From Haliotis rufescens (taxonomy: Eukaryota), in assembly GCF_023055435.1 (NCBI RefSeq), contig NW_025964223.1, forward strand, positions 26,474,001 to 26,538,000: a DNA stretch of 64,000 nt. Reading direction: 5' to 3'. Shown one piece after another: positions 1,990 through 61,910 of the stretch. Under the pieces are notes generated by a model that was given only the letters and a program-made list of their open reading frames with translations, searched no databases and was not told where the DNA came from. Both the position numbers and the translations under genes were made by a program. How positions within the stretch are numbered: the stretch's first letter is position 1; each line of letters opens with the position of its first letter.

Positions 1990-3047
1990 GTATCAGTTGG
2001 TGCTGGCAATTTTTTATACTTCACTTTTGTCTCCTTTTTCATCACATTTTTTTTCAATGGATATATTAACATAAAGTTTAAATTGTAAACCATCTTGTTC
2101 AGTGATGATTATGACACACCTAGATTATGTAGTGCCGTGAAGGGGGGGTGGGGAGAGTACAGGTGATAGTTTCTATATGTCAAGTTATCATTGCAGGGGT
2201 GCAGGGGTAGCCTCACTGTTAAAGTCACACCTAAAACTTGGTGTCTCTCTGCAATGGTGCTGGAATATTTCTAAAAAGCATCATAAAATATTCTCACCAC
2301 AAATTAATTATGGGAAAGAAAGAGATTTGAATTTTCCACAGGGAAAATATATAGAATACGAAAAGTATGTGTTTACGGTCATCATTTTTGCATATTATGA
2401 AACAATTCATCACATAGTGTGAATGCTTGGTGGGGTATCATGCTTTGGACATACAGGACACTTTCAGCTGCATGCAATGTGGGCACGTCTTGCACTTCTC
2501 ACTCCTCAGTCTGTACCAAGGAGAAATTGACTTCTTGTTTTATCATTGGTGAATATTATTACGATATGTATCCATAATCATTTTCAAATCATATATTTTC
2601 AGTTTTGTTTATCATTCACTTGCGTTGCACACTTTTCCCTCCAGTTATGTACCTCAGCCAATCAGGTCCTCCAACATGGAGCTTGATGGACGTTCATGCT
2701 TAATCCTGTTCATTATATTGGTAATTGTTACTTGAATAACTTGAAAGTGTTTCGAACATAATGTCATAAATGGAATCCAATCGGTAAATATATTTTATGT
2801 AACTTTCAAATATCAGAGCTTACACTAAAGTTACTTGGGATGGAATATTCATCTCTTGTGAGATCCTGCACTGAAACAGTTTTTAATAGTTCCTAATGTA
2901 TAAGCAGTAAGTGTGGGTCTGTTAGATGTTAGGATGTTAGGACAGAATGTGAAAAGGAGCTGCTGGTTACAGAAGCTTAATGCTTGTGCTGTTATGGTGT
3001 ATGAAGTAGACATAAAAGTGTTAATCTCTCATACACTCTTGCTGAAG

Positions 3048-3308
3048 TGGTGGCATGAATGGCTTCTAAGGGGTCACAATTTGCTGTGCAGAGTTGCGTC
3101 CCTTGGGCACTCAAGAAGCCAATTTGGGTTCGAATCCCGATTCGCCACGATTTTTTCTAGGTTTGTCAGCACCATACCTATGCTCATGGGTTTCACCAAA
3201 GTGGTAAATTTCTGAGACCTGCATCACTTCAGGCTTTCCTCTCACATTAAGCTGACATGCCATGATATAACTGGAATACTGTTCAAAGTGGCGTTAAATC
3301 CAACTCAC
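3048..3308 (+). mobile_element. SINE family A, diverged head, with 15-bp TSD
   Basis: Body matches 49696/53800. acactcttg(c/t)tgaag at 3033-3047 and 3309-3323. Confidence 0.88.
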
Positions 3309-3778
3309 ACACTCTTGTTGAAGCCTCAGTAAACACCTTTCCATAAGCATAAAATCATGAGACAGATTGTCAGTTTGTGAAACTTTGCTCCAAGTCAAAA
3401 TAATTCAGTGATGCAACTGATAAATTATAATATTTCCAATGAAGCTGCAAGATTATAACATACTAAAGCTATTTATTTGCATGGCCCAAAGTGCAGAGTT
3501 TTATGTTGTATTGTGGTTGTCACAGGAGTGGCAGCTGTCATCACATGATTGGCATTTTCTGAACATAATTTCTCATTGTCTGTCTTCATCGGTCTACTGC
3601 ATGCTAGGCTGTATAACAACTTCACATGACAAATTTTTGCCTGCATGGATTGTAATAGTTATAGATCCTTGTGTCAGTTGACACCTTTCCCTTCCACGCT
3701 TACAAGTAACATTTCAAGTCCCTTCTCAACACTGAACATGATCCTTGATTATAATGAAACCCCCCACCTTCCACCCAG

Positions 3779-4030
3779 GCCGAGGACACCGAAGAATAGG
3801 ATCGGACGAGTACACACACATCACGGGGACATCCAGTGCATCCTCCACTCCCCGCACAGCCAGCCCCGCCCGTATGCCGGCCACAGGGGTGACCCACTGC
3901 AGCACCTACCCCGGCCAACTGAACCAGGTGGGGCAGAGCATGTCCCCACCCACACGCTCCATCTCACACCAGCCCCCGCAGAGCTCGTCATGGACGGCGT
4001 CAGAAACACCAGGGCAGATGCCTACATCAG
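3779..4030 (+). CDS. MAP3K7: MAP3K7/TAK1 exon, Ser/Thr/Pro-rich linker (RGHRRIGSDEYTHITGTSSASSTPRTASPARM...SSSWTASETPGQMPTS)
   Basis: GC-rich island with ccacccAG acceptor and CAG|gtactg donor; 252 nt, phase 1-1, in frame with 8743. Composition and W-T motif parallel the human TAK1 linker (RRRSIQD...SRSSSPSVRM...HPWTPDD). Confidence 0.8.
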
Positions 4031-6106
4031 GTACTGGAACTTTATCATGGTCATGTTTTGGTGACGGAGAGTCACAATGTTCTCCATTTTATGTGTCCTT
4101 GTCCCTCCGAGGGGTAGCTCTCTCATGTAGACTGACTCTTCCTTGATGATTGGTTGGTATTTAGAAGATGGGTCAATAATCAGAATTCACTTATTCATTT
4201 ATAACAAAAGCTGATTGGTTGTCAGTGTAACATGCAGACTATGTTCTGGAGGGGATCCAGTGGCCCAGTGGTCTAAGCTGCTCCTGAGCTGCTGGGATCA
4301 AGTGGTTGAGGGTTTGAATCTCACATTTCTGCCTCACTTGCACCACACTTGGGTCACCAAAGTAGCAGACTTCTATGATCTGTGCCACTTTGGGCGTTCC
4401 TTCTACATTAAGCTACATCAATGCAGTGATGAACTTTCTCACTCTTTAATGTCTGAAGCCAGTGATCTTCCTGCTGTATGGCAACTAGGATCTGTGCCCA
4501 CAGGCACTGGTTTATCTGCACCAGACCATTGTACCTTCCGGCCTTATAGTATAGTACTGTTACACCTCGTCTTAAATCATTAGTCAATAATGACACTTAT
4601 GACTGTAGTCATAACCTGGTATCTTTTCTAAATCCTCAGTCACAACTAAGTCCTCACTGGCATTCCCAGCACAACATTAAACACATGTACAGGACATCAC
4701 AATCAAGAAGAACATATCTACATACAATAACTAAGGATACATGATCATACATTCTACCCTTTGTCAGATGGAACAAACTGTCTGTTTACAAAGGGACATA
4801 ACTCTTGTAGCCCTTATTGCATACCACTAATAATATAGTAAACTTATAACAGTACTTTAAGTTGTAGTACTTTTCACTGTAATATTCCCACACTGAAATA
4901 GGCCAGTAAAATAATCAGGCAGAGTTCACTGTTTGAGATAGTCATAGGACATTGTGTTCTTCCTGTGTTGCCAGTACCTTCACTTGTCCATTGAGCACGA
5001 GAATACCTTTCTTCTGGAACGTGATCAGACTTACTACAAGTACAATGTTTGTTCATTTGGGATTAATTGACAAAGTTATTTATGATAGCAAATGAGCTTG
5101 TAAAGCAGTAAAAAGACTACAGAAATTTGATGATGTTCTGACATTTTCTTGTTCTTGACAAATACTGAGGTAAGTTCATTTTTAACTTTAACATTGTTGC
5201 ATCTTAAGTGCATGTTTGGGTACCTGACCACTCGCTACACCAACGTAGTTAAGGGACAAGCAGTCCCTCCTCATTTAAAGGAAAAAGGCATAATGATTTC
5301 ACCTATACAGTATTTAGGTGTGAGTGAAGGGCAAAATTGAAAAACTTTGAAACTAAAAACATTTGGAAAACCTTTTGGACAGGTGTAAGTCAGCATATGA
5401 CCCCCAACACTTTCCTGAGGCTGGTTGGAATCAGTAAAAGTCCTAGTCTGTTGGAGTTAATCCAGATATAGCAATATTTATCTCCTACTACTGCTAACTT
5501 CCTTTCCTTCAGATGTCTTGACATGTTTCATGTGTTATGACACACTGAGCAACAGCCTTGTCTGTCTCGACCTAGTGAAACGTCACAAAACATTGTGCTC
5601 TAAGATCATATAAACCGAGAATAGATAATTTGCATTGTGTATGGAATGCAAAATTGTGTTGCTTTGAATCATATAAAACTAATCCATTTGAAAAAGATGC
5701 CTGTTGCACATGACATGTCTTTTCTGGAAATAAATATTATACAATCCTAGTTCTCACTGTCCGGGGCTGACTTCCTTCACTCAAAGTTGTGTTGAAGAAT
5801 GAAACACCCTTCAATGCTGAGTGTAAGGCTTCAGAGTATGTGCAACAATATGACATTATTTAGTCCTCAGAGACCCAAGAATGAATATTTAATAATCCAT
5901 TCACTCACTTTCCACCCTCATCAGGTCCTGGAATACTCTAGGATTCCTATATAGAATTGTTTTTCTTAAACTTATACGTAACTGTATTTCGAAAACTTAA
6001 TGTTCGTCTAAACATCATTAGAGAAGTGAATTGTGCCATTTGTTGAATATTTTACGAGATACAAGGCACTCGTATTAAAACAACTATTCTCATATTACAG
6101 TAGGAG

Positions 6107-6858
6107 TTATTATCCCCTGCCATGAACTGGGGCAGAGGATATAGGAACGGAGTACATATGTCTGTCTGTCCATCTGTCCTTCCATCCATCTCTCATTTCA
6201 CTTCTCAAAGTGGACAAATTTTCTCAAAAACTATTTAAGTCATAGACATGAAATTTTACACTCTGATCTTACAGAGTTATGGCCCTTGGTCCATGTTATT
6301 TTACTTGGTGCATAGTGTGCGCAATGGGGACAAGTGTCCTCAGAAACTACTGAAGTTGCATAAATGAGAGTTTGCATGCTTATGTGAGAGATATTTGTCA
6401 AGACTGAGTTCTAAAATTGGTCACGTAAATTATGTTTTTACAGAGTTATGGTAATTTTACTTATCATGACTGAGTAAAGGAGCCTTTTGTGTGTATTACT
6501 TTCACATTGAATCATTTTTCTGATGACATAAAGCGGCCCAAGTTTTCTCTTCTTAAGGCTTTATGCGGCGGTCGGGTAGCCTTGTGGTTGAAGCATTCGC
6601 CCGTCACGCCGAAGACCCGGGTTCGATTCCCAACATTGGTACAATGTGTGAAGCCCATTTCTGGTGTTCCCCGCAGTGATATTGCTTGAATATTGCTAAA
6701 AGTAGCATAAAATCAAACTCACTCACTCACTCACTCACACTTCAGCCTATATAGGACTCTTATATATAGTCACTGTTTATATTCTCTACTATATGAACAA
6801 ACATAATTCTAATGTGCCCCGTGGCAGGGAATAGTGATAAGATAGTATTTTCTTGTTT
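6107..6858 (+). mobile_element. Non-autonomous Helentron-like (HINE/DINE-1/pearl-type) element with a nested SINE
   Basis: ttattatcccctgcc subterminal repeat with nearby inverse ggcagaggata, GTCT/GTCC microsatellite, cagagttatgg core repeats (6272, 6441), and 3' ggcagggaata followed by a short hairpin and T-run. Confidence 0.6.
6566..6738 (+). mobile_element. tRNA(Asp-like)-derived SINE family B
   Basis: gtagccttgtggttgaagcattcgcccGTCacgccgaagacccgggttcgattccc head; gatattgcttgaatattgctaaaag 3' end; (CACT)n tail. Confidence 0.9.
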
Positions 6859-7210
6859 GTCTGGTACAACTTTCATTCCACAAATTTCTCGTGCATTTTT
6901 TTTATACTTTTTATCAGCGAACATGTCTGTGAAAATCCATCGTCAGATTACAGACAGTTATAGGAAAGGTCCTTCTCATGTTAGTACTTACTGCGATAAG
7001 TCAGACTTCTGAACACAACGGTGGTTCTGCTGCAAGTTGGTATGTTATGTGTGTAAGCTTTGATTGGGAGCTCATTGAGGAAGCTTCGGGGCATGCTCAA
7101 CATTGAGAAGCATGGTAAAAGTTGCAAGAAGCTTCGAAGATGTTGAATTTTCTGAAAGCTTGGCATATACATGACAAAGTTTGGAATGATTCTGTTTACA
7201 TCATATGAGT

Positions 7211-7573
7211 TACTGTATTCACCGTAATAAGCACCCTGGGCTCAGAAAATGGAAATGGGGAGTGCTTATCAAAACAATACATGAAATAAAGTTTGTTTCA
7301 GAAATCGATCGGTAGTGAACAAGATGGGCTTCCATGGTTTAAACGTCACCAAAACTAAACTAAAATGTTTTTAGATAATAATATTGCACGGCAATTATAT
7401 ACATACCCCTTCTGCCCTGCTGTTTTCTGTAAAAAATATTTAATATACACAGGAAAATTCAGACTATCATGTAAATTTTCAGGTTTAGTTCTGGGCAATT
7501 GCTTACAGATTGGTCTAGAAGTTGGTCATGGGGAGCTTATTGGAGCAGAGTGTTTAATACAGTGAATACGGTA
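7211..7573. mobile_element. MITE with TA ends (Tc1/mariner-pogo type)
   Basis: Imperfect TIRs of about 28 bp: tactgtattcaccgtaataagcaccctg / cagagtgtttaatacagtgaatacggta. Confidence 0.85.
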
Positions 7574-7989
7574 GCTGATACTGGAATGGCTGTGACTTAA
7601 GTGACATATACACGGAGCTGTTCGGGACCATTAATGTGAATTGACTGAGGACTATGACACTGATGTGATGGCTGCTGTCCACTGTCTTGTCCTGGGCAAT
7701 CATTACACAGTGGCGTGGGAGGGGGTATGTCTGTTGAGAGAACTTGTTTGGTTATGACATTAACCTTCTGTGCATAACTCTTTCTCTCTGAGCTGCAGCC
7801 ATGAAAGTTGAACTCTGTCAGTGATTGCTAATTGCTTCTGTGTTTGTGTACTTCCAGTCACATTTTATGTATGTTTGAATGTGGAAACTTGAGTCTGTAA
7901 CATATTTTGTCATACTGTTTTACTGATAAAAATATTCAGCTAGAGTTGAGTCTCTGCAGAAATCCTTGTGTCTGTGTATTTGTGACACC

Positions 7990-8760
7990 TAACATAAACA
8001 CTTATGTTTATTTTTATTATGTATTTCCAGTATCACCTGATGTCAACATGATGTACTTCTATATTTAAAAATATATGTCATTGCTTTATTTCCTGTGGTA
8101 TCTGATGAAAAAAATGTTACACAAATGTGATTTTATTTTGTATACTCACTTAATGTCAACACAATGTACTAACATGCATTTTTATGCTGTGTTTCCAGTG
8201 TCACCTGATTTCAACATGATGTACTAACAACAAAATAAAAAGTTATTTTTTAAAGGAATTTCCAATATCACCTGATGTCAGCACAATGTACTAATATTGT
8301 TCTCGTACGTCAACATGATTTACAGACATGTATTTTTATGCCATGATTCCAGTGGCTGCTGACGTCAACATGATGTACTAACATATATTTTCATTGCTGT
8401 GGTTCCAGTGTCACCTGACGTCAACATGATGTACTAAGGTGTATTTTCATTGCTGTGTTTCCAGTATCACCTTACGTCAACAAGATGTACTAAAGTGTAT
8501 TTTCATTGCTTGTTTCCAGTATTACCTGACGTCAACACGATGTACTAATGTGTATTTTCATTGCTGTGTTTCCAGTATCACCTGACGTCAACAAGAAGTA
8601 CTTATGTGTATTTTCATCGCTGTGTTTCCAGTATCACCTGACGTCAACACGATGTACTAATGTGTATTTTCATTGCTGTGTTTCCAGTATCACCTGACGT
8701 CAACACGATGTACTAATGTGTATTTCATTGCTGTGTTTCCAGTGGCTCCTGATGTAAACA
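7990..8760 (+). repeat. 56-bp tandem repeat derived from the intron/exon junction of the TAK1 exon at 8743 (about 13 units, decaying toward the 5' end)
   Basis: Unit gtactaatgtgtattttcattgctgtgtttccAGtatcacctgacgtcaacacgat. CAG ends at 8352, 8408, 8464, 8519, 8575, 8631, 8687 and 8742 (spacing 55-56). Confidence 0.95.
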
Positions 8761-8813
8761 TCCCTGCCTCTGCTATGAACATGGTCTATCTATCTCTGGA
8801 CCACCAGTTACAG
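8743..8813 (+). CDS. MAP3K7: MAP3K7/TAK1 exon (VAPDVNIPASAMNMVYLSLDHQLQ)
   Basis: tttccAG acceptor and CAG|gtgaga donor. MVYLSLDHQLQ matches human TAK1 MAYLTLDHQLQ. Confidence 0.93.
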
Positions 8814-9965
8814 GTGAGATCAGACACCACTGGCAATCCATCAGTGGAGCGTTGGTTGAATACAACCCCCTCCGGCTTTGACCCAGACAAAATACCAGAG
8901 TTATGCCGGGTACTACTTCAATTTGATGTCTCCATGCATGTGCATGCACACCTTGCATGTGGGCTTCTGTCCTGGGTCAGTTTGGTTGGGTTTTTTGAAT
9001 GCACAAGTAAAATATTCAATTCAATAACTAATTAACTGGCAGAAAATTGCCTACTCACTTGAACAATCTGCTCCTCATTTAAAGCGTCCTTTTGAAAAGT
9101 GAAATATCTTTTGATAGCTTTCTTTATGTTGTCATAATTTGGGTGAGGAAAAACATGGGAGTCACTATCCCTGGATTCCTGTTGTACCTTGACATCCACT
9201 GAACATGGCTGAACATCACAGATTATGTTATGAAGAAAAGAAAATAGAAAAATAATAATTCTGCAGACAAAAAGAATGAAATCATATGCAAACTGGTGGT
9301 TGAGTTGGTTTGGGCAGAAACAACACATTTAAATTTTGTTTTGACAAGTTAAACGCGTTGTGTTTTAGCTAACGTTGTTCTGCCAACTTTTGTAGGAAGC
9401 CAAACATTTCTGATTTTCTGGAGTTCTTGACAAAATAGTTTTGGTTATTGAGGAATATTTTCTCCATGCATGTTATTTTTGCCTTACTTTTTACTCTATG
9501 ATTTATTTGATTGTAGTGATTATGGGGAAGGGATTTTGCAAAGCCTTGTTTCAAATTATTAGATTTCTTGTTCCATTTTTAACACATGTAGAAGTGAGAG
9601 TATGTTTGGTACATAAACGCATGGTACATCTATCATCTACCACATATGCATACAACTCTCCATGTTTGTTTGCCACACATTGTTTCTTTTATTAGAAAGA
9701 ACTTTTTTATCATTAGATCTCATTCCTTCCATGTACTTGGTCTTCCAGGTTCATTAACCATGTCAACAGTAGCATTGTTGCCATCTCTGTCTCATCATCA
9801 CTATGGCACTGCTTGCTTGTAATAAAGTCGTATTGCATGAGTAGTCAAGATGTATGATAATGAGCAACTGTTTCAAAAGTGTAGTATAAATTGTTGGATC
9901 TTAAACTCAAACTGATCTATTTCGAACTTGAGTAGTCAGACAACAAATTCCTCATGAAAATAAGA

Positions 9966-10277
9966 TTCCGTATTCGACGTAATAAGTGCCCAGGGTGCTC
10001 TCAAAATCATAAATAAGGGGACTCTCATTAGATTATTATTTTGCTGAAAAAAGAAAAGAAAATGTTTTCATACGACAGATATTTTTTCCAGAATTTATTT
10101 GCCCACATTTAAGGGTGCATATACCACATGAGTGTGTATTATACACGAATAAATAAGTCTTTTGCACATTGATCAATCGGAAGGGGTGCTAATTGGGATT
10201 GTTCAATAGCCAATATATTAGCAAATATCGCTGTGGGCGCTTATTAGAGTGGGGCGCTTATTGCGTCAAATACGGTA
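9966..10277. mobile_element. MITE with CCGTATT termini (same family as 15563)
   Basis: ccgtattcgacgtaataagtgccc / gggcgcttattgcgtcaaatacgg; internal sequence matches 15563-15883. Confidence 0.88.
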
Positions 10278-10667
10278 CACAAATTTCATCTTTATGTAAG
10301 TATTGTACAATTATTGTAAACATTAAGGGGTAATAAAGTTCTGATTGTTAATTTCTCAGAACCTTGATAGGGAGTATATTTTGACTGGGATTTGCTAATG
10401 TAGCTAAATATGGTGACTGAAGCTTCATCATAAAGCATAGCATCCTTCCATCCATGACAAGAAGGAAATGGAAATTATTTGAACAAATTTTGAATTTTCT
10501 GTGGTGTTGGTGTACTGGACCACGTCTCCCTGCTAGCAAGGCTACATGGGAAGTTTGTCCGCCCCAGTCCTTCATCGGTTGTAGACTAACATGGCAGCTG
10601 GAAGGGAATGTTACAAGCTCATACATCTGCATGTTATGCACAGTGTGATTGCCATTCATATGTTGTA

Positions 10668-10849
10668 CAGTCAACTCATGTTATCTCAGACTATGACAAC
10701 AGTTCCACCTTTCATGACCCCGCTCCCTGTGATCTCGATCACACTGTACAACAAACTCTCAGATTATCAGTCTACCCTTATTATATAGTTTTAAAAGGAT
10801 TCTAATCAGGATAATGGTATTAATTGAGAAATAGACCATGAGTTGACTG
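10668..10849. mobile_element. MITE with CAGTCAACTC termini and TA TSD (Tc1/mariner-pogo type)
   Basis: ta|cagtcaactcatg ... catgagttgactg|ta. Confidence 0.88.
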
Positions 10850-12610
10850 TACAGATCTATTCTGTGTATATTATTAATATGACCTGGTGACCATTAAGGG
10901 GATTATAGTAAACACTAAGCAGGAAGTTATCTAGGATTCCAATCTTAGTGCCCTAATTGGTGAAACAATCAGGATATTCTTCAAAATTAGATTTTTATTT
11001 TCTGTTTTTAATTTCGTAAATTCTGAGGTATGGGGACATTTCTTATTCAAATTGGTAATTTTTGCTGACATTTGCTGCAGACTTGGGGTCAAATATCTGC
11101 CTCTTTGCTTGTCCAGATAAATCCCTGTTAAGGCATATGCAAGGAAGGCACATTGTGACTCCCCTATATCTGAGCAGCTCTCCAAACAACAAACATTTAT
11201 CCTAAGTACGTAAAACATTAAAAGTGAAGCATTATTTGAACTGTGCTTGACTTGTCAATTTTCTTAAATGGTCACCAGGGCAGATCTTCATGTTCTGAAA
11301 ATGTCAATATTGATTATTATGAGATGATATATTCATGCTGCTAGTATTATTGATACAGGCTAAGGTGTAACATCATGAAAGGTTGAAGTACTAATGTATA
11401 TAATTTCAGATGTGGTGATGGATAAAAAGAAGGGAATGGGATCTTTACGTGTGTAAAGTGTGTAGTCATTACTAAGAAAATATACTGTAGATTGTTATTT
11501 AGACCATCTAGTAAAGTAAGCTGATGCCATTAACAAGATATGCCAGTCATAATAACACTTGCTATCATAGACCTATCTTCTTGATTTTCTAGGGAACACA
11601 GATAATTGAAGATCATTATTGCAGTTTGTCTTAATGTTGCCTCTTGCCTTTCAGATGAGCTCACATAGATGAGCTTGATAGAGCGATAGATAGTACCAGC
11701 ATCCTTTCATGACCGACTGTCACATGTAGATGCAGGGCTTGATTTAGCAATATGAAACATATAAAACATTTTATTGAAAAATGCATATTAATATTTATGT
11801 CAAAAAGTCTCAAATTTGTGTCTTACTTGTCCACACAACATCAATCTTTGAACACATTCATTACCTCTAAGCTTCATATACCATACTACATCAGTAATGC
11901 CTGTGTAATTTTTGTCATACTTTTGGGGGCTTGACGTCATCAAACTGTGGGCACTTCAAGATTATTTGTATATGTTTTAACTTTGATAAATTTATGGGAC
12001 AAGTGCAACCTGGTTTTGCATGTAATAAGATGAATGTGATTGGTGGTACTGACAGAGAAAATGGCGGTGAATCTGCACTTATCAATTCAGATTCTGATGT
12101 TGAAAACAAAATTGCAGATAAATCAGATCATGGTAAAAAAGTATAAAAACCCAAAATGTCTCCATTATTTTCTAGAAATTGGTTAGATTAGTATTTAGTT
12201 TTAATATGATTATTTTTTACATTGTTTCCATAAGATTAAACCTCCATTTTCATGTTCGGTGTTATGATGTTTGACTTTTATTTTATTGTATACCCCATTG
12301 GAAGGGTTACATGGCCCACCCATAACACATTCTAGATGAAAAACTGACTTAAGGTATTGGTACAAACACAAGTTTGAGTACAAATAATACTTAAGGTTCT
12401 TTCGCCTTGACCCATAGATCCATTTGTCACTGTCCACCATGTGTAGTTGTAGTTGTTACTGTCGCATCAAGTCATTTACATGGAACATGCATTTTCCCTT
12501 TCCTTTCCTATTTAAATGCAAAAGCGATTTTCATTTTGGTTCTTTTCTTAAATATATTTTATCTCTTTGTTGTTGTTGTGATTGGTAGATTTTCCTGTTT
12601 GAAGTTCCTT

Positions 12611-14572
12611 CTAGACACACTGTGGCTGTGTTATTTCCAGACACTATGTCTGTGTAAGTACCAGACACTATGGCTGTGTTAGTACCAGACGCTATGGCTG
12701 TGTTATTTCCAGACACTATGTCTGTGTTAGTACCAGACACTATGGCTGTGTTATTTCCAGACACTATGGCTGTGTTATTTCCAGACACTGTGGCTGTGTT
12801 ATTTCCAGACACTATGTCTGTGTTAGTACCAGACACTATGTCTGTGTTAGTACCAGACACTGTGGCTGTGTTATTTCCAGACACTATGGCTGTGTTATTT
12901 CCAGACACTATTGCTGTGTTATTTCCAGACACTGTGGCTGTGTTATTTCCAGACACTGTGGCTGTGTTATTTCCAGACACTATGGCTGTGTTATTTCCAG
13001 ACACTATGGCTGTGTAATTTCCAGACACTGTGGCTGTGTTATTTCCAGACACTATGGCTGTGTTATTTCCAGACACTATGGCTGTGTTATTTCCAGACAC
13101 TGTGGCTGTGTTATTTCCAGACACTATGTCTGTGTTAGTACCAGACACTATGTCTGTGTTAGTACCAGACACTGTGTCTGTGTTATTTCCAGACACTATG
13201 GCTGTGTTATTTCCAGACACTATGGCTGTGTTATTTCCAGACACTGTGGCTGTGTTATTTCCAGACACTATGTCTGTGTTAGTACCAGACACTGTGGCTG
13301 TGTTATTTCCAGACACACTGTGGCTGTGTTATTTCCAGACACACAGTGGCTGTGTTACTTCCAGATACACTGTGGCTTTATTTTTCTAGACACACTGTGG
13401 CTGTGTTATTTCTCGACACACTGTGGCTTTGTTATATCCAGACACACTATGGTCCAGACACACTGTGGCTGTGTTATTTCCAGACACTGTGGCTGTGTTA
13501 TTTCCAGACACACTATGGCTGTGTTATTTCCAGACACACTGTGGCTGTGTTATTTCCAGACACTGTGGCTGTGTTATTTCCAGACACTATGGCTGTGTTA
13601 TTTCCAGACACAATGTGGCTGTGTTATTTCCAGACACACTGTGGCTGTGTTTTTTCCAGACACACAATGGCTGTGTTATTTCCAGACACTTTGGCTCTGT
13701 GATTTCCAGACACACTGTGGCTGTGTTATTTCTAGATGCCTTTTGCCTGTGTTATTTCCAGACACATTATGGCTGGTTATTTCCAGATATTATGGCTGTG
13801 TTATTTCGAGACTCTATGGCTGTGGTATTTCGAGACACTATGGCTGTGGTATTTCCAGACACAATGGCTGTGTTATTTTCAGACACTGTGGCTGTGTTAG
13901 TACCAGACACTGTGGCTGTGTTATTTCCAGACACTATGGCTGTGTTATTTCCAGACACTGTGGCTGTGTTAGTACCAGACACTGTGGCTGTGTTATTTCC
14001 AGACACTGTGGCTGTGGTATTTCCAGACACTGTGGCTGTGTTAGTACCAGACACTGTGGCTGTGTTATTTCCAGACACTATGGCTGTGGTATTTCCAGAC
14101 ACAATGGCTGTGTTGTTTTCAGACACTGTGGCTGTGTTAGTACCAGACACTGTGGCTGTGTTATTTCCAGACACTGTGGCTGTGTTAGTACCAGACACTG
14201 TGGCTGTGTTAGTACCAGACTCTGTGGCTGTGTTAGTACCAGACACAATGGCTGTGTTAGTATCAGACACACTTTGGCTGTGTAATTTCCAGACACTATG
14301 GCTGTGTAATTTCCAGACACTATGGCTGTGTTATTTCCAGACACTATGGCTGTGTAATTTCCAGACACTATGGCTGTGTTATTTCCAGACACTATGGCTG
14401 TGTTATTTCCAGACACTATGGCTGTGTAATTTCCAGACACTATGGCTGTGTAATTTCCAGACACTATGGCTGTGTTATTTCCAGACACTGTGGCTGTGTT
14501 ATTTCCAGACACTATGGCTGTGTAATTTCCAGACACTATGGCTGTGTTATTTCCAGACACTATGGCTGTGTT
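12611..14572. repeat. 24-bp minisatellite, about 80 units (ccagacactatggctgtgttattt), with 26-bp variants in the centre
   Basis: Direct inspection; explains the MAVLFPDT, SGNNTAIV and LWLCYFQT ORFs. Confidence 0.98.
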
Positions 14573-14789
14573 AGGTATTACCTGTGTTATGTCAATGTAA
14601 TTATGATCAGTACTTGAGCAGTTTGAGCTGTTCATTGATGGCACATGATCAATGATTATATCCTAATTGATTCCCACCATTTGGTTTCTTTAAAGTATGA
14701 TATTGATGTAATGTTTTCAAAATGTATTTTACATATCTAAGCTATTTGTTCATGTATGTCATGGGAAGACTTGAGGAAAAAACAATTTG

Positions 14790-15243
14790 CTGATCAACAA
14801 AGTCATGTTTTAAGAAACCAATCCTTCCACAAACCCTACTGATCAACAGGTAAATATTAAGAAATCAATCCTTACACAAACCCTACTGATCAACAGGTAA
14901 ATATTAAGACATCAATCCTTACACAAACCCTACTGATCAACAGGTAAATATTAAGAAATCAATCCTTACACAAACCCTACTGATCAACAGGTAAATATTA
15001 AGACATCAATCCTTACACAAACCCTACTGATCAACAGGTAAATATTAAGAAATCAATCCTTACACAAACCCTACTGATCAACAGGTAAATATTAAGAAAT
15101 CAATCCTTACACAAACCCTACTGATCAACAGGTAAATATTAAGACATCAATCCTTACACAAACCCTACTGATCAACAGGTAAATATTAAGAAATCAATCC
15201 TTACACAAACCCTACTGATCAACAGGTAAATATTAAGACATCA
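14790..15243. repeat. 47-bp minisatellite, about 9 units (aaatcaatccttacacaaaccctactgatcaacaggtaaatattaag)
   Basis: ccctactgat recurs at 14881 and 14928, and at the same period onward. Confidence 0.97.
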
Positions 15244-49695: not shown

Positions 49696-49977
49696 AGGGG
49701 CACGGGTGGCCCAGTTGTCTAAGGCGCCACAATTCGCTGTGCAGAGTTGCATCCCTTGGACAGGCCAGAAACCTATGATTGTGGGTTCGAATACTGGTTC
49801 GCCCCGATTATGTTTCTAGGTTTGTCAGCACCATACCCGTGCTCGTGGGTTTCACCGAAGTGGTAAACGTCTAAGACCTGCATCACTTGGGGCTTTCCTT
49901 CCACATTAAGCTGACACGCCGTGATATAACTGGAATACTGTTAAAAGTGGCGTTAAACCCAACTCACTCACTCACTC
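49696..49977 (+). mobile_element. SINE family A, full length, with 12-bp TSD
   Basis: Collinear with the 53800 copy. ACTTATTCTTGA at 49684-49695 and 49978-49989. Confidence 0.92.
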
Positions 49978-51027
49978 ACTTATTCTTGATCTGCCAGCAC
50001 CATACACATGCTGGTGGGGTTTATCAAAGTGGCAAACTTCGATGGCTTGAGGCACTTTGGACTTTCCCCCACATTAAGTTGATACACAGTCATAAACTGT
50101 GTTTGGCTGCTGAAAATTAACCTCATGATCATTATGAGGACAAGTTAGTTGAAAAATATTCATTTCCTTCGTCTTCATTTTTTGGTGTGAACATAAACCA
50201 AACATCTCAGGACATCATTCAATAAACAACTTGGTTTGGACCTTGATGGAGTTGTTATGGAGCAGTGCCAAGAGACTTGACAAAGAATTCAACAATTGGG
50301 GAATTTGTTAAGAATTCTGTCATAAAAAGTCACACATATGGTCATTGAATGCACTTAAAATGTAAAGAGACCTGGCAAAGAATTAAAGAATTTAAGAATT
50401 TATTTAAAATTCTGCCATAATAAATCACACATATGATCATTCAGTGCACTTGAAAGCCCCTTGTATTTCATGAAGGTCGGAGTGACATTCAACTTGGGCT
50501 AGATACATGATTGTCTTGGGGCTGGAAATATATCACACACTGAATGTGAAAAAACTCCCCACCAATTCCACTTTTTTTAAACAGAAAAAGGAGAAAAAAC
50601 CATTTCTGATACAACCGACAATTACAGCTGTGCAAACAAATAGTCTAAATTAGTGACTCCTTATCAGATGCTGTTGATGCTAGCCTGCGCCAACTCATGT
50701 AAAGTGTTCATAAATATTGAAGAGAGATTGTTTTTGTGCGGTTACTAAAATTGACATGTTTGTCTCTCTGAGCATGGTAATAATAAACCTTTTTCTGATG
50801 TGGATGACTTAGAGCTTGAGGAACTGTGAAACATGTATTTCCCTATTTTTATTGGATTTTTTTTGTTGCCTCTGCTGAGAGTAGAATGAGGTTACTTTTT
50901 ATCATCCTGAGATCCAGACAGGTGTTGTGGCATCTGAACCTTATGAAGTGCCTGGGTTGTAGACTGTACACCTTAAGTAAGGCAATCAATATACATGTAC
51001 CTTCATTTCTTTGATTTCTTAGGTGTA

Positions 51028-51188
51028 AGGGTAACCTTGTGGTTAAAGCATTGTAACATCAGGCACAAGTGCTGGGTTCGATTCACCAAATAGGTACAAT
51101 GTGTGAAGACCTTTCTTGCTATCCTTGGCTGTGATATGGCTTGAAAAATGCTAAAAGCATCAAAACTCATCACACTCATCTCATTCAT
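51028..51188 (+). mobile_element. SINE family B copy (diverged)
   Basis: ccttgtggttaaagcatt...gggttcgattc...ggtacaatgtgtgaag. Confidence 0.85.
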
Positions 51189-51791
51189 TTTTTACATTGC
51201 CAGTCAGGTTGAATGAATAATATATTGGCTAAATCTGATATTGTGTCCTTACCAAACTATTAGGACTTTATTGGGAACTGTTTGAACCATTGCATTCAAG
51301 TTTCTTTCATTAACAAAGCCAAGGAGTTTGTGTAAATATCCTGCAGTTTCCCCGACTGGTTTGGTTTGGAGGTTTGTACAAGTTCGAATTGGTTTTGATT
51401 TGAGTTTTGATAAAGCTTCTGATTCAAATCTTGCAAAGAATCATAAATCGCAAAGTCAAACTAAGGACATTAGCCAAATCAATTCCATCCTCTGAAGTCG
51501 GCAAGACTAGAGCTGGAATGCAGCCTTGATGCAGGGATTTGGGTGAAACCTTTGTGAAACTACTCTAACAAGGCATGAGGTTAAATTTAATCATTTAAAT
51601 GTTGTTTGAAGTCAAAGGAGATTAGACGTGTGTTGCAAAATAGCTTGAAGGATGCACATGATCTGTGAAGGGGATAAGAACCGTGGGAGAATTAATATTA
51701 ACTTGATTGGGGACTAGGACAAATGTCAACAGGAGAGGGGTTATTAGGCAGTTGAAACTGTTATTGTAGTGTTAGTGTGTTTGTTTTGCAG

Positions 51792-51891
51792 ACATGAGCT
51801 CATCAAAGAGTTCGAACAGGAGGAGAAGGAACAGCAGTCGGTGACGCGGTCGAAGATGGTGGAGGAGTTCACGCAACTGTCTTCGGAGAAT
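51792..51891 (+). CDS. MAP3K7: MAP3K7/TAK1 exon, coiled coil (HELIKEFEQEEKEQQSVTRSKMVEEFTQLSSEN)
   Basis: ttttgcAG acceptor and AAT|gtgagt donor; 100 nt, phase 2-0. Matches human [31 protein letters not shown]. Confidence 0.95.
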
Positions 51892-52102
51892 GTGAGTGTT
51901 GGTCTGTGCCTTCAGGAGTTGGTCATCAGTGAACCTGTGTTATGTTTCCATAATGTGACATTCAGACACACAACTAAAACCCGTGTTGTGTGACCCTATC
52001 TCATCATTACATGATACAATGATAACACTGTTGTTGATACATAGTTTGAATTATGGATATCAGTTTACATTACGTTTTACTGCATGAAATTTTGTTGTTC
52101 TG

Positions 52103-52598
52103 CCATCTTCCCGAGGCAAAGGAGTTAATTGACTCCAAAAGTCCAATTTTAACCCTTGCCAAACGAGGCTGGGATTTCTGGGCTCGATCGTAGTGCCACC
52201 AGTGGCTATTATGAGTTATGTCCCTCCTGTGTCCCTCCTCTTGACCAATTAGATATCACTCCACCTCTCATATCACTTGCATTTGCTTCAAACAAAATGG
52301 TAGCACCCAGTGAAGACGATCTGATCATTAATCAAAATCTGTATTGTGATAAAATGGGTCTTACTTCATGAAGTGCATCAAATTAGAAACATGAAAGGAT
52401 TTGGGAAATATCTGTTGACGCCGAGTTGGTGGAACACATGCTGTGCAAATCCTGCACCGGATGTTGATTTTGATACACGTTTTTGTATTGGACTATGGCA
52501 TAGATTCATTAGTCTAGCCAAAACAAAACTCCATAATTCCAGCCTAGGTGGAAACTGGACTTTAATAGTCTGTAAACTCCCTTGCCTACGGAAGATGG
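52103..52598 (+). mobile_element. Non-autonomous TIR element, copy 2
   Basis: ccatcttcccgaggcaa / ttgcctacggaagatgg; shares tcacttgcatttgcttcaaacaaaatgg with copy 1. Confidence 0.9.
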
Positions 52599-53799
52599 TT
52601 ATCTTCATGAAGACCATTAACTTCTTAATTTTTTATTAAGTTAATATTTGCAATTCTGTTTGATTAAAATGAAGTTTTATTTCATTTCATTGTTAAGGAG
52701 CAACCAACACAGTTTCTTGTACCACTTTAAAAAAAACACTTTCAAACATTTCTAGTGAACAAAAAGTATACAAGATGTTTTACTATTTTAGATGAGACAT
52801 GAAGAGGTGGTGACTTCATTTTTCTCACATCATTTGAGTTTAGATTGTTTGTATATGTTAACATCAAAAGTCCTTTCAATGACCCATACATATCTGAAAG
52901 TTTAAGTGCAATGTGTAATAGGCAAAAAACAGATTGTTTTCCTCCTCATTGAATTAAACATCACATGTGATTGATGGATATGTATGCCTGCCGAGTTGAT
53001 GGGAATCATGTTTTCTAACTTAGCTGTGCCCCAAGGTGTGAACTAGAACCACATGGTCCAGTAGATACATGAACAGAAATGGCCTGCATCATCATGGTAA
53101 AGCCATATACAATTGTAGGTCTGCTTCCATCTCCTTCATCAAAGACCATTAATTAGCTGGCAAGACAGAGGAAGTAGGTAAATTAGCACCAGTAGTCCTC
53201 AAGTCAATAAAGGTGTCTGCTCTGGCCAATCTGTGAACATCTTGAGCTCCAGTTGTTGAAATTGATATTCATGTGTTGGTGCGGCCATCCCTCATTGTAA
53301 CTGGGTCTGAACCAACACTCCCCCTCCCCCAAGACAAATTGTCACTTTGTAATTACCCGTTGTGGGGCCACTAATGAAGAAAGTTGGAAGATTAACTTGA
53401 GATTTTGCCCGACCTATCTATTGTGGTGATGATTTTGATTAGTTTCAGGCATGAATGTCTGTTTTCATTGAATTGACGAAATTTACAGCCTCCTTTACCA
53501 CTTAACCCTTAGACTGCTGAAGTACTTTGCAGTGTCATAAGGTGGAGAACAAGAGTTCATTAAAATAGTTCTCTTCTGGCGTTTTATGGAATTTCTTTTA
53601 AATTCCTAAGTTATGGGATGCTTCTCTATGAACCTGTATAATTTTTTCTTCATCCTACCATTTCTTAATTTTTAAAATTTGGATTATCTCATCAAAGTAT
53701 ACAATTGTTTACAATTTTGTGCTTTTGTTTCTTTTGCAACCATCCCTAATAATTGTTATATCTGTGAAAAATATCGTGCTTATGTCCTAAGACTTTTAA

Positions 53800-54092
53800 G
53801 GGGGCACGGGTGGCCCAGTCGTCCAAGGCTCTGTGATTCGCTGTGCAGAGTTGTGTCCCTTGGGCACGCCAGAAACCTGTGATTATGGGTTCGAATCCCA
53901 GTTCGCCCCGATTATGTTTCTAGGTTCGTCAGCACCATACCCATGCTTGTGGGTTCAGCGAAGTGGTAAACGTCAGAGACCTGCATCACTTCGGGCTTTC
54001 CTCCCACATTAAGCTGATATGCCATGATATAATTGGAATACTGTTAAAAGTGGTGTTAGGCCCAACTCACTCACTCACTCACTCACTCACTC
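53800..54092 (+). mobile_element. tRNA-derived SINE family A, full length, with 11-bp TSD
   Basis: A box GGTGGCCCAGTCGTCCAAGGC, B box GGGTTCGAATCCC, (CACT)n tail. AAGACTTTTAA duplicated at 53789-53799 and 54093-54103. Confidence 0.92.
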
Positions 54093-54339
54093 AAGACTTT
54101 TAAAATCAGGTACAGAATATCCACCTATTGTTTTTTTAAGAAATTTAACTATTCAATATGCATTTATTTATTTAAGAAAAAAAATATGAATATGATGGGA
54201 ATTTTATTTCCTGAAATGATCAAGTAAATTGTGTGTATCTTGAATTGGCTTTTGGACAAGAGATTGCAAATGTACCAGAAAACTAAAAAATAGTGTGCCA
54301 GGTAATTTTGTCCGTTCAGTTAGGCTTAGACTCTCCATC

Positions 54340-55655
54340 AATAGAGGTTACCAGATAGATGTTCTCTATCAATAGGTGTTACTTCATATGATGTGTTCTC
54401 TATCAATAGGTGTTACTAGGTAGGAGGTGTTCTCTATCAATAGGTGTTACTACATAGGAGGTGTTCTCTATCAATAGGTGTTACTACATAGGAGGTGTTC
54501 TCTATCAATAGGTGTTACTAGGTAGGAGGTGTTCTCTATCAATAGGTGTTACTAGGTAGGAGGTGTTCTCTATCAATAGGTGCTACTAGGTAGGAGGTGT
54601 TCTCTATCAATAGGTGTTACTACATAGGAGGTGTTCTCTATCAATAGTGTTACTAGGTACAAGGTGTTCTCTATCAATAGGTGTTACTAGGTACAAGGTG
54701 TTCTCTATCAATAGGTGTAACTAGGTAGGAGGTGTTCTCTATCAATAGGTGTTACTAGGTAGCAGGTGTTCGCTATCAATAGGTGTTACTAGGTACGGGG
54801 TGTTATCTATCAATAGGTGCTGTTAGGAAGGAGGTGTTCGCTATCAATAGGTGTTATTAGGTACGAGGTGTTAACTATCAATAGGTGCTGTTAGGAAGGA
54901 GGTGTTTGCTATCAATAGGTGTTACTAGGTACGAGGTGTTACCTATCAATAGGTGCTGTTAGGAAGGAGGTGTTCTCTATCAATAGGTGTTACTAGGTAC
55001 AAGGTGTTCTCTATCAATAGGTGTTACTACATAGGAGGTGTTCTCTATCAATAGGTGTTTCTAGGTAGCAGGTGTTATCTTTCAATAGGTGCTACTAGGT
55101 AGGAGGTGTTCTCTATCAATAGGTGTTACTAGGTAGGAGGTGTTTTCTATCAAATGGTGCTGTTAGGAAGGAGGTGTTCTCTATCAATAGGTGTTACTAG
55201 GTACAAGGTGTTCTCTATCAATAGGTGTTACTACATAGGAGGTGTTCTCTATCAATAGGTGTTACTACATAGGAGGTGTTATCTATCAATAGGTGCTATT
55301 AGGAAGGAGGTGTTATCTATCAATAGGCTCTATTAGGAAGGAGGTGTTATCTATGAATAGGTGCTATTAGGAAGGAGGTGTTATCTATCAATAGGTTCTA
55401 TTAGGAAGGAGGTGTTATCTATGAATAGGTGCTATTAGGAAGGAGGTGTTATCTATCAATAGGTGCTGTTAGGAAGGTGGTGTTATCTATCAATAGGTGC
55501 TGTTAGGAAGGAGGTGTTATCTATCAATAGGTGCTGTTAGGAAGGAGGTGTTCTTTATCAATAGGTGCTGTTAGGAAGGAGGTATTCTTTATCAATAGGT
55601 GTTACTAGGTACAAAGTGTTCTCTATCAATAGGTGCTGTTAGGAAGGAGGTGTTC
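54340..55655. repeat. 34-bp minisatellite, about 38 units (aggtgttctctatcaat + aggtgttactaggtagg)
   Basis: ggtgttctct at 54426 and 54460, and at the same period onward. Confidence 0.97.
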
Positions 55656-56955
55656 TCCTTAGTCTGCCCTCAGTAGTAACCATCTCATTTCTCTGAACAT
55701 CATCATTTTGGAGGCTTCTTTCCTTCTTAACTATTTGGTTTTTTTAGGAACAGTTCCTGTCATACATCTTGTCAGAAATATATCATACGCAATTAACAGT
55801 AAATAGATAACAGCTCAAGACACACAAACTGTTATGTATGTAAACATGTTGTAGTGCTTCTAGCTTGCCCAACACAAACAGCAGCGGCACACTGGTGTGA
55901 CAGAAAACAAAGAAAATGTTAGTGTACAGATAGCAGAAGCATTTATAATGGAATGTTTGCTGTGTCAACACTCCAGTGTAGCATGGAAGAAGTCTGAAGT
56001 ATATTAACATTTTCTGATTTGTTTTAGGAAAATAGTTTTCAAACAACAACATCTAAAACAAATCAATTCAGTAACGAATTGTGTTGAATCTTTCTTTTTG
56101 GGGAAAATTACAATGAAATTGTTGATTTGAAGTTTTTATGTGGTACTTTCTCCTAACATATGCATTCTGTTGAAAACAGTGGCAGCCTATTACATGCTGT
56201 GATTGTTGTGTTTATGTAAAATATTTTTGTTCTTTTAACAGACAAGAATTCTTTTTGGTCTATTTGTATGATGTAAAATGCGGGTGTATTACAAATGCAG
56301 GAAGGATGGTGTAATTCAAACTTTATATTGTCCATAGTTTAACAAACTCTTTTATTTTCTGATTTAATCAGTGGTAAATTACGTTCTCATGTCTTGGTGA
56401 TAACCTTTCATTCCTTGGGGGAATATGGTGTCATGATGTTTTCATTGTAACGTGAATGATGACAACTTAGATATCACCATAAGAATTTAATCAATGGCTG
56501 GGCTTGCTCGTTGTAAAAAGAAAAGCTGTCTTCAGCTTTAAATAATGGACTTTTCTCTCCAAAGGCCTTTTCCAACAACTTCACCTTTGTCGGCTGTTAT
56601 GCAATTATTATGTTTTTTCTCCTTCCTCAATCTTTTCAAGGAGAGAAAAGGATTTCCAAATGTTGCCAATATTTCAATTGACATTATTAAGTGACAAAAA
56701 TATTCCCTTGATAAAGTCATTTGATATTGAATTACCAATCCCTAAGTTTTTTTTGTTAATGTTGTTTCATTCTGAAGTAATAGTTACCATGAAGTCGGAG
56801 AACAATTTTTTTAATGTGTATAAGTTTAATGTAGTTGCTCATGTTTTCAGTCACTGGTTTGTGTTGTCCAGATTAATTTACAGGCTGCCTTGGTAGGAAT
56901 TAAAAAAACACGTGTTAAATGCTTTGAATGGAACCGAAATCCTCACTACAACTAA

Positions 56956-57123
56956 GGGGCGGTGGGGTATCCTAGTGGTGAAAGCATTTGCTAGTCATGC
57001 TGAAGACCTAGGTTCAATTCCCAACATGGGTACAATGTGTGAAGCCAATTTTGATGTCCCCAGCCGTGATATCACTGGAATATTGCTAAAAAAGCTTCAA
57101 CAAACCATATTCACTCACTCACT
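56956..57123 (+). mobile_element. SINE family B copy
   Basis: ggggcggtggggtatcctagtggtg...ggtacaatgtgtgaagcc...gaatattgctaaaa...cactcactcac. Confidence 0.88.
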
Positions 57124-57313
57124 TTTAAAAAATATGAAACCTCAACACCACAGAATATTCAGTCTCAATGATCTGCTAAACAGATTCTGTTGGTCATAAA
57201 AGGCAAGATAGCAATCTTAGTGCTACAACAAATGTATCTCTAGGGTAGAGTATGGTATTTTGGACAGAGTATAAAGTAGAGTGAATATTGTGACATTTCT
57301 GTTCCCTTTTCAG

Positions 57314-57403
57314 GAGAGTCTACTGGCTGCTCACAGAAGTCTAAAGCAACAAGTGGAAGAAATACGTCAAAATCAAGCCAGAAGATTTGTACCACCTACT
57401 TAG
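57314..57403 (+). CDS. MAP3K7: MAP3K7/TAK1 terminal coding exon (ESLLAAHRSLKQQVEEIRQNQARRFVPPT*)
   Basis: ccctttttcAG acceptor, phase 0, TAG at 57401-57403. Aligns with human [28 protein letters not shown]. Confidence 0.92.
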   Translation, partial: ESLLAAHRSLKQQVEEIRQNQARRFVPPT

Positions 57404-59278: not shown

Positions 59279-59337
59279 TTACTTTTAGAATTGCTTGTAG
59301 TTGAGAAGTGTTTTTGAAGTTACTTATGGTTAGATGT

Positions 59338-59585
59338 TTTGTTTGTTGGTTTGTTTGTTTAACGCCGCACTCAGCAATTTTCCTGCTGTAGGATGGCGGT
59401 TTGTAAATAATCGAGTCTGGCCCAGACAATCCAGTGATTGACATCATGAGCATTGATCCATGCAGTTGGGATACAGTGACATGCATCTACCAAGTCAGCG
59501 AGCCTGACAACCCGATCCCTTTAGTCACCTTTTCTTGCAAGCATGGGTTGCTGAAGTTCTATTCTAACCCAAATCTTCATGGGGT
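59338..59585 (-). mobile_element. SINE-like family C copy, antisense
   Basis: Collinear with the 58394 copy. Confidence 0.85.
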
Positions 59586-61644
59586 TATGGTTAGATGTGT
59601 GTGGAAAGTCAACACTGTTGACTGTTCACCAATATCAGTATTCACTTATGTCTTACTACTTCAGCCCCACACTCCCACCTTGTCTGTGGGCCACTATCTC
59701 TTTTTCCCAAGGACCACATGCTGCCTTTCAGATGTTCATCATTAATCCATTAAGAAGTCATCCTACCAGATGGCTGTGATGCTGGAAGTCAATATGATTC
59801 AGCTGATGAAAAAGATAGAACCAAAGTCACATAATTTCTCCTTTGCTTGTTTTCGTTTTAAATTGATACTAATTTGACTGGGTGCAGGGATCATCAGCAC
59901 TGACAGCGATGCCATGCATGAATGTTGGTATTGTTTACAGTGTTCAGAGCAGATCATTTTGCACAGAAGTCCTTATTAAACAATGACAATGGCTGTCACA
60001 GCACTGACAAGCCAGGCACATGATCTGAATGTGTAAAACACAGACTGGATCAAGCATGCTATCAGCTTCAGCACAATCAGGTGGTGTCATGAAAGCTTCT
60101 TGTTTTGACTGAGTGGGAGACTATTGTCACAACATAAGTTGATACATATGGCCTCTACTCGAGGTGTTGACTTGACTAGTTCGTAAGGTGAAAACTCAGT
60201 GTAGCCATTTCATGGTTTATGTCTAATTGGGTTTTCATACATTAGCTCTGCACAAATATAGTTAACTGTGGTGATGGCTGGACTCAAATTCCTGTCTTCC
60301 AGTTAGTATTATGATCAATGCAGCTGGAGCATGGCTAGGGAACAGTCTGTACTAATGTGGCAAATGATACAGTACTTTAGCCAATATCATAATACATTCT
60401 TGCAATTTAAGATTCGATCAGCCATTTATGTCATTACACCTGCCCAGATAGGTAGTCCACAGTCAGTCTTCGGCTATAATCATTCCCGTATATGTTGTGA
60501 TGTATATTATATAGAGTTGTTAAAAAAATCAAATGATCGTCATTGAGAAACATACATGGCCGATACAATGGAACAGAATTGGATTGGGTGCATGATGCTA
60601 TAACGATGGCATGGCAGGAAGACCATGATGTGTTTGTCACTAAAGGTTGGAAATACTGAATTTCCTAGCTACATGAAACAGCGTGCTTTTGAAATGATAT
60701 CTGAAGTTGACGAGTCACGTTTGGTGGACATTGTGCACCGCTGGTAACACGAAGTATTGTTTATTGTCACGAGTGTACGTCTGAAGATCACATTTCAAAG
60801 TAAACTATAAGCTATACTCTTTAAGTTATTGGAACGTTGAAACTTAATTAAAAGAAGCCTCATATTACGTCTTTGGTAGATTGATTACTACAGGTATAAA
60901 CAGGTTGTTCCTGGCTCACTTACAGCAGACTCTGGTTTCACTCTCAGGATAGTCTCAGGTATCTTTTCATTCTACAATGATGAGTAAAAGTTGTCGACCA
61001 TATTCAAGTTACATCACCTGAAAGTAGTCGAGTCTGAGTCAGGCATGCATGTGGATGACAGCATTGTCAACGATCAACACCAAAAGGCTACAGTGGCGCA
61101 CAACGAACCAGCGGAGACATCGTGGCCACCCGATACACATTAGCCGCCTCTAACAACAAGAATGGAGTACTGGTGACCCTGGATTCCCGACGGGATTTCA
61201 CCTCATCTCATCCATAATTTCTTTAAGGGCATTACATATTTTTTTATGACGCTCTCCTAATATGTGTATTATTTTGTTATAGTATTTGGCAACCCTCCCT
61301 TGATTCCCTCTGACCCGCTCCCCCTATAATAAATGACCGGTCACACTTATGTCAGAAAGGACCGATATCTAATTCGGCAGAAGAGAGACAGGTCGGTAAC
61401 TTTAGTCTCTTTAATTGAGACGCACGATCAAGACTTTATATCTGCAGAGATAAGGAAACGACGGATTGCTAGGCCGTAAACACTGTTTTAACTGACATTG
61501 AGTGTAACGACGGGACGAGACATTGACGTGATGGTATTTTCAACATGAAGCGAATGCCCAAGCACTAGAACACCTTAATGGGAGTAACAAAATGGATAAT
61601 TAGATCTTTCTTTTTTTCATTACCCGTTTTATATCTTTTCCCTA

Positions 61645-61910
61645 GCGGGGGCCAGTCGTCCAAATCGTCACATTTCACTATACAGAGTTGCGTCTCTTAG
61701 GTGTGCCAGGAATGGATGTGGGTTCAAATCAAGATTCGCTCTGATTATGTTTCAAGTTAATCAGCACCATACCCGTGCTCGTTTCAACCATGTGGTAAAC
61801 GTCTTATACCTGCATGACTTCGGCCTTTCCTCTCGCATCAAGCTTGCATGCCCTGTTATAACTGGAATACTGTTCAAAGCGTCGTTAAACCGAACTCACT
61901 CACTCACTCA
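61645..61910 (+). mobile_element. SINE family A copy
   Basis: cagcaccatacccgtgctcg...acctgcat...tataactggaatactgttcaaag...(CACT)n. Confidence 0.88.

Follow-up and report, generated by a model that had tools for sequence, protein, structure and literature searches.

Short interspersed elements (SINEs) within genes of the abalone Haliotis rufescens lie predominantly in the sense orientation, a gene-linked bias that is real, genome-wide and opposite in sign to the bias found in mammals. The bias is described here for a 64,000-nucleotide stretch of contig NW_025964223.1 (positions 26,474,001 to 26,538,000 of the forward strand; hereafter the window), which carries the 3' part of a MAP3K7/TAK1-like gene, and for 77 other genes on both strands comprising 1,044,464 bases. 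Four SINE families, termed A, B, C and E, together gave 530 sense and 122 antisense copies in the gene set, or about 81% sense, with individual ratios (sense:antisense throughout) of 138:18 for A, 121:31 for B, 207:55 for C and 64:18 for E, corresponding to sense shares of 88, 80, 79 and 78%. A strict first pass had given 77:15, 80:22 and 118:38 for A, B and C, and the bias is present when plus-strand and minus-strand genes are taken separately. An earlier note on the window had proposed that SINE orientation marks the transcribed strand, and this proposal is borne out by the ratio in genes, by a flip in orientation at a head-to-head neighbour and by a ratio of 40:41 in exon-free flanks (Fisher p=2e-9).

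Strand in the gene set was anchored on exons of kinesin, myosin, dynein, PTP and PDE genes, with the DNA between collinear exons and the flanks of dynein domains taken as gene spans; 18 dynein spans reach past the matched domain, and a few may end outside the gene. The counts exclude TAK1 itself, two duplicate haplotig loci (L092 and L093) and SINE hits outside the defined spans. Once neighbouring copies were collapsed, 58 of the 70 genes with copies showed a sense excess and 11 an antisense excess. The sense share is 88% in dynein, 82% in kinesin, 82% in PTP, 77% in myosin and 62% in PDE genes, with dynein genes the most biased (218:29 versus 277:82, p=0.0006). Dynein genes are strongly expressed in sperm precursors. 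Genes picked as soma-restricted gave 6:3, a sample of just 9 copies in 25 kb that has no power. There is no clear trend with age (31:8 at 0-2% divergence, 98:41 at 4-8% and 178:24 at 14% or above), and more than 3 kb from any detected exon the ratio is still 68:25. A genome search for Cys-loop receptors returned about 150 matches, mostly intronless genes in tandem clusters, and a 36-kb kinesin intron contains two intact open reading frames (ORFs) for LRR proteins nested in antisense (L190:1388-2680 and 4736-5953, minus strand).

The bias follows genes rather than place. Genes encoding GCFC, caspase and SASRP1 domains occupy the minus strand upstream of TAK1, and SINE orientation flips at the boundary between TAK1 and the GCFC gene, from 25 plus and 2 minus across TAK1 to 7 plus and 34 minus beyond it (p=3e-10). 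One plus-strand TIR-domain ORF is present within this upstream minus-strand region, and SINE orientation is not reversed there. The 5' flanks of twenty kinesin genes gave 75:60 when pooled; in seven flanks whose host gene could be identified the copies follow that gene (36:8), ten without a recognised exon gave the even ratio cited above and three were omitted as unclear. Similarly, 107 kb downstream of TAK1 without a recognised exon gave 19:27. Exon-free DNA in these comparisons means that no exon was recognised among coding-model candidates, of which 26 picked candidates were Pfam-scanned, and is not equivalent to annotated intergenic DNA. Since orientation flips at neighbouring genes and is even where no exon is recognised, the effect is tied to genes and not to the region.

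The type of element matters as well. MITEs (miniature inverted-repeat transposable elements) are unbiased in the same genes, and both orientations are tolerated in MITEs whose cryptic splice sites score as high or higher. Six other abundant repeat families in these genes, most with terminal inverted repeats, gave 23:14, 14:17, 16:12, 26:44, 13:7 and 6:14, with a lowest p of 0.04 for a near-palindromic element, and seven smaller families are also even. Five small families, mostly HINE-like, are fully one-sided in genes (13:0, 10:0, 6:0, 5:0 and 4:0), counts that are partly circular because these families were preselected for their one-sided look. Free (GTCY)n runs are one-sided at 12:0 independent (GTCY)3 loci, which replaces a count of 22:0 swollen by a single array. 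The one-sided HINE-like and (GTCY)n repeats could be explained by a preference for T-rich targets, by single-strand insertion or by selection acting against tandem ACAG or against poly(A) signals. PMC4067079 describes the structure of HINEs and their T-rich targets. HINE/Helentron-like repeats and (GTCY)n runs occur in the window at 6160-6450 and 33851-33957 as well as in dynein and kinesin introns. DIRS-like elements with reverse transcriptase and tyrosine recombinase are found in introns as five sense copies and one antisense copy, too few to test.

Counts in the window concern one gene plus 6.6 kb downstream of its stop codon and are therefore a sample of one gene. An exact k-mer count gave 63 matches to CACTCACT and 0 to AGTGAGTG, in agreement with the one-sided tail runs seen earlier by eye, and runs of at least three ACTC units number 11 versus 0 on the opposite strand. 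These 63 matches form 15 loci, or 12 after a 51-nt minisatellite (38285-39053) and a cluster at 33751-34014 are collapsed (12:0, p=0.0005). Profile hidden Markov models (HMMs) called 22 SINE copies on the plus strand and 1 on the minus strand inside the gene, and 1 on plus and 3 on minus past the stop, with weak matches of about 20 bits (25136, 49590 and 56835) that may be spurious. All seven family A copies previously listed on the plus strand were recovered there, as were four of the five family B copies; the fifth, near 2205, was uncalled by the HMM but is on plus by tail alignment. Family C had been described as occurring in both orientations, which is true across the window but not inside the gene (1-57400), where it stands at 7 plus to 1 minus; the remaining three minus copies (58413, 59360 and 60997) are located past the stop codon. 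Being one-sided inside the gene, family C is not the unbiased control that it had been assumed to be.

The tails of all four families are homologous to each other and are putatively of the type found in long interspersed elements (LINEs), and they end in the tandem repeats ACTC (A and B), AAAC/AACC (C) or CACCT (E). No LINE body was found upstream of 46 tail-only matches. Families A, B and C include 149 copies with target-site duplications of variable length (mode 13 nt, with 12-14 nt in 89 of the 149), and these duplications are T-rich and G-poor. Motifs resembling A and B boxes are visible by eye in the consensus of A, B and E, scanning the window against Rfam returned no tRNA at E<=1, and the head of family C is not tRNA-like. 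The poly(A) hexamer is absent from both strands of all four consensus sequences. Family E has the internal (CA)n and terminal (CACCT)n described for the Haliotis MESC/Meta SINE (HalSINE1), and family C is likened to LP-SINEs, which have a non-tRNA head of about 70 nt that derives from a LINE and is common to Nimb 5' untranslated regions (PMC4758252, PMC4824008, PMC11481361); both names were assigned from text descriptions and not from alignments. The same mollusc papers provide family descriptions and report genic enrichment, and the last of them links the shared tails to Nimb LINEs (PMC11481361).

The earlier note had attributed the one-sided tails to a purge of antisense copies, in which the reverse complement of the tail would supply tandem GTGAGT splice donors, and had offered CAA-tailed SINEs as a refutation test. 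That test goes against the donor tail as main cause, as bias is about equal in ACTC-tailed (138:35) and AAAC/AACC-tailed (98:32) copies (p=0.40; bootstrapping by gene puts the difference at -7 to +14 points). GTGAGT ranks first among donor hexamers in a species matrix that, like the acceptor matrix, is approximate and built with approximate exon ends, and two real donors use it, as the earlier note had observed (after exons 41419-41474 and 51792-51891). In the context supplied by the repeat, TGA-GTGAGT, it reaches only the 11th percentile of this matrix, although the antisense tail of family E is a strong donor at the 69th percentile. The antisense copies that survive match sense copies in the quality of their tail donors (p=0.65) and are no poorer in upstream acceptors (p=0.69). 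ACTC runs of at least 8 nt persist in 35 antisense copies, and genes carry more single GTGAGT hexamers on their sense strand than on the other (242 versus 194, real donors included). Arrays of at least 24 nt appeared more biased (34:4 versus 200:80, p=0.018), but not after clustering (23:3 versus 142:49, p=0.14).

What survives of the donor proposal is a possible second layer in introns shorter than 1.5 kb, on a tail-independent base of about 3:1. In these introns A, B and E together gave 140:12 versus 85:18 for C (p=0.028, interaction z=2.1, post hoc), and ACTC tails gave 53:5 versus 35:11 for AAAC tails (p=0.053). In longer introns the groups are alike, at 163:51 for A, B and E and 107:30 for C, with 76:28 for ACTC versus 57:20 for AAAC (p=1.0). 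Bias specific to elements carrying the signal is therefore confined to the short-intron subset, and donor tails as the main cause are improbable. In contig alignments, which are swamped by repeat copies, none of the 18 loose-end rows listed out of 421 lies at the acceptor. ACTC arrays of at least 24 nt make up 26 of 217 in genes versus 1 of 41 in exon-free DNA, and sense tails may lengthen in transcribed DNA.

The explanation that we favour, tentatively and at somewhat below even confidence, is a tail-independent bias set at insertion by shared LINE machinery, together with a smaller short-intron purge through the GTGAGT or AGGTG tail. The four families, with their shared and putatively LINE-derived 3' end, would be mobilised by a common insertion machinery that prefers one strand of transcribed DNA and so yields about 4:1 in the direction of transcription, whatever the terminal repeat. 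In target-primed reverse transcription a sense copy arises when it is the gene's template strand that is nicked first and used for priming, so the step in question would be preferential nicking or priming on that strand in germline-transcribed genes. In short introns, antisense copies would probably also be purged, to a smaller extent, on account of the GTGAGT or AGGTG tail. From the bias itself, its limit to genes, the strand flip, its independence of the tail and its absence from MITEs, all of them observed, we infer a likely origin at insertion. Bias is alike in four families that have different heads, bodies and end repeats, and the TTCCAG acceptor is not eroded in antisense survivors. Additionally, copies are gained on one strand and lost on the other while total intronic density is kept: introns hold 69.7 SINEs per 100 kb (56.7 sense and 13.0 antisense) versus 61.6 in exon-free DNA (30.8 per strand), a sense density 1.8 times the per-strand exon-free value. 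It is possible, though we would put it more cautiously, that a LINE machinery of molluscs, probably of Nimb type, senses which way RNA polymerase II travels and throughout the genome primes on the template strand of ordinary genes, such that selection is not needed.

Several observations weigh against an origin at insertion. Per strand, antisense density is 0.42 times that of exon-free DNA. Genes are also richer in MITEs (22 versus 5.8 per 100 kb, a comparison subject to ascertainment bias), so the baseline within genes may be raised, in which case a purge would fit as well. Short introns are more biased (225:30 versus 270:81, p=0.0004), with the excess limited to donor-tailed families, and nested antisense genes may blur the bias in long introns. 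The one-sidedness of HINE-like repeats and of free (GTCY)n runs, neither of which uses this LINE machinery, can be read either way. Nor does the flat age profile discriminate, since biases equal in young and old copies have been read in mouse as fast selection (PMC3446317). A purge following symmetric insertion would have to remove about three quarters of antisense copies for a reason common to all four families, such as a common tail whose reverse complement resembles a branch point plus acceptor, or antisense pre-mRNA that pairs with abundant SINE RNA. We consider this possible and rank it close behind insertion bias. It draws on the antisense deficit, on stronger bias near acceptors (83:9 within 150 nt versus 115:33 beyond 3 kb), on the one-sided repeats outside this LINE system, which suggest a strand-level filter, and on selection being the accepted reading in mammals (PMC3088655, PMC3446317). 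It has to contend with antisense tail acceptors that are mediocre (15th-29th percentile) next to stronger ones on the sense strands of A and C (41st-52nd), with the lack of motif erosion in antisense survivors, with an intron-length effect that vanishes once dynein genes are modelled (z=-0.97) and with a total intronic SINE density that is not reduced. The evidence fits strand choice at insertion somewhat better than such a purge, none of it is decisive, and a mixture of insertion bias and shared selection is plausible.

A passive effect of target sites, in which an endonuclease that likes T-rich, G-poor sites meets them more often on the sense strand of introns, agrees with the composition of the target duplications and with a mild intronic skew of T over A (31.0 versus 29.1%). 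Site matrices predict only 51-52% sense, rising to 56-57% with 70-nt flanks, and with at most 57% predicted this cause is largely refuted and very improbable. Least credible of all is chance in one gene, local duplication or a regional effect such as replication direction: the window does hold a single gene, and neighbouring copies in exon-free DNA agree slightly more often than they differ (61:48), but the de-duplicated gene counts, the flip upstream of TAK1 and the seven kinesin flanks that follow their host gene all speak against it, and one-gene chance is refuted. Promoter collision is disfavoured; 5'-truncated A copies stand at 58:6 by a loose definition, yet few truncations are both clear and young (A 8:2, B 7:2, C 6:5).

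Intronic orientation biases tend to be antisense and to be ascribed to selection, and nearly all of this work concerns mammals. SINE variants in mouse are 41.6% sense (PMC3446317), human SINEs are 0.471 and LINEs 0.392 sense with MIR unbiased (PMC7797064), antisense is favoured for SINEC_Cf in dog (bioRxiv 2020.10.27.358119) and antisense biases are described for some classes in non-mammals (PMC2911107). Orientation likewise depends on host transcription in abalone, but no antisense excess of this kind was found in its genes, and the effect is larger and is carried by four SINE families of a mollusc. Human Alu has a sense excess only 20-200 nt from exons, through antisense cryptic acceptors (PMC3088655), which resembles the donor proposal and the short-intron layer in placing a splice signal on the antisense strand. 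In contrast, the abalone bias is not confined to such a zone, as seen from the ratio beyond 3 kb, and does not need a donor tail. Sense excesses are known from clonal somatic L1 insertions in Rett neurons (PMC6478352) and from Leishmania SIDER retroposons, where the excess in gene clusters is about four-fold as here (PMC2689281); SIDERs, however, are non-intronic elements in 3' untranslated regions of polycistronic clusters, reversed in spacer regions and with sense copies linked to roles at the mRNA level. A literature search returned no report of such bias in molluscs, which is weak evidence given the limits of the library, and a term search of the available text of PMC4758252 and PMC11481361 found no analysis of SINE orientation relative to genes.

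A 4:1 sense bias that is shown by four high-copy families and absent from MITEs of the same introns is a natural system for separating insertion preference from selection, with built-in controls in two tail types on one LINE-type tail and in two transposition chemistries. At about 0.7 SINE copies per kb of intron, orientation marks the strand and extent of genes in abalone assemblies; for example, minus-strand genes were indicated in this way upstream of TAK1 ahead of their annotation. Were LINE machinery to read polymerase direction, SINE orientation would be an annotation-free map of germline transcription units.

Table 1. Host gene exons and repeats in the window (window coordinates)
Feature	Position	Strand	Basis or remark
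MAP3K7/TAK1-like host gene, 3' part	631..57403	+	protein match, tblastn, boundaries read in sequence
TAK1-like exon (alternative)	about 631-717	+	
TAK1-like exon	3779-4030	+	
TAK1-like exon	8743-8813/~8908	+	
TAK1-like exon	16270-16329	+	
TAK1-like exon, GTGAGT donor	41419-41474	+	
TAK1-like exon, GTGAGT donor	51792-51891	+	
TAK1-like last exon with stop	57314-57403	+	
Family A SINE, short ACTC tail	3059..3314	+ (sense)	HMM
Family A SINE, old, tail lost	17644..17896	+ (sense)	HMM
Family A, 5'-truncated, 18-unit ACTC tail	32624..32766	+	HMM
Family A SINE, old	36664..36870	+ (sense)	HMM
Family A SINE, young (2% from consensus), target-site duplication	49699..49980	+	HMM
Family A SINE, target-site duplication	53803..54093	+	HMM
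Family A SINE past stop codon	61647..61911	+	HMM
Family B copy, degraded	2205..2297	+	tail alignment; no HMM call
Family B SINE, possibly tRNA-like head, ACTC tail	6567..6738	+	HMM
Family B SINE	18632..18790	+	HMM
Family B SINE, old	51028..51190	+	HMM
Family B SINE	56958..57123	+	HMM
Family C SINE, AAAC/AACC tail	34847..35047	+ (sense)	HMM
Further family C pieces, sense	24332, 35476, 36094, 47186	+	HMM
Family C, internally deleted; sole antisense SINE called inside the gene in the window	45162..45283	-	HMM
Family C copy downstream of stop codon	58394..58597	-	HMM
Family C copies downstream of stop codon	59339-59555 and 60997-61165	-	HMM
Fourth family E, internal CA microsatellite, CACCT tail, MESC/Meta-like	40477..40827	+ (sense)	HMM; missed by the earlier note
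Inverted-repeat MITE	23778..24331; second copy 52105-52597	no strand	family 16:12 in genes

The host gene was recognised from its exon at 3779-4030, a 100% match to H. rufescens MAP3K7/TAK1-like proteins (P0002/P0003). Mapping these proteins by tblastn placed seven plus-strand exons between 631 and the stop at 57403, with the kinase exons upstream and the first exon about 24.6 kb upstream of the window. A Pfam scan of ORFs in the window gave nothing useful, gene identity having come from the protein match, and a strict splice-motif exon finder recovered one real exon only. TAK1 and the GCFC-domain (PAXBP1-like) gene are arranged head to head and at most a few kb apart, about 24.6-27.5 kb upstream of the window, and two duplicated caspase-domain ORFs lie on the minus strand beyond the GCFC-domain gene. 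A 5'-truncated family B copy in sense orientation is situated about 40 nt behind a TAK1 kinase-exon donor (contig position 26458018), with a tail of AGTC and not ACTC. Within the window, a 56-nt minisatellite (8307-8761) has eight acceptor-like units and runs into the real TAK1 acceptor at 8742, and a 24-nt array (12617-14573) likewise repeats an acceptor-like end on the sense strand.

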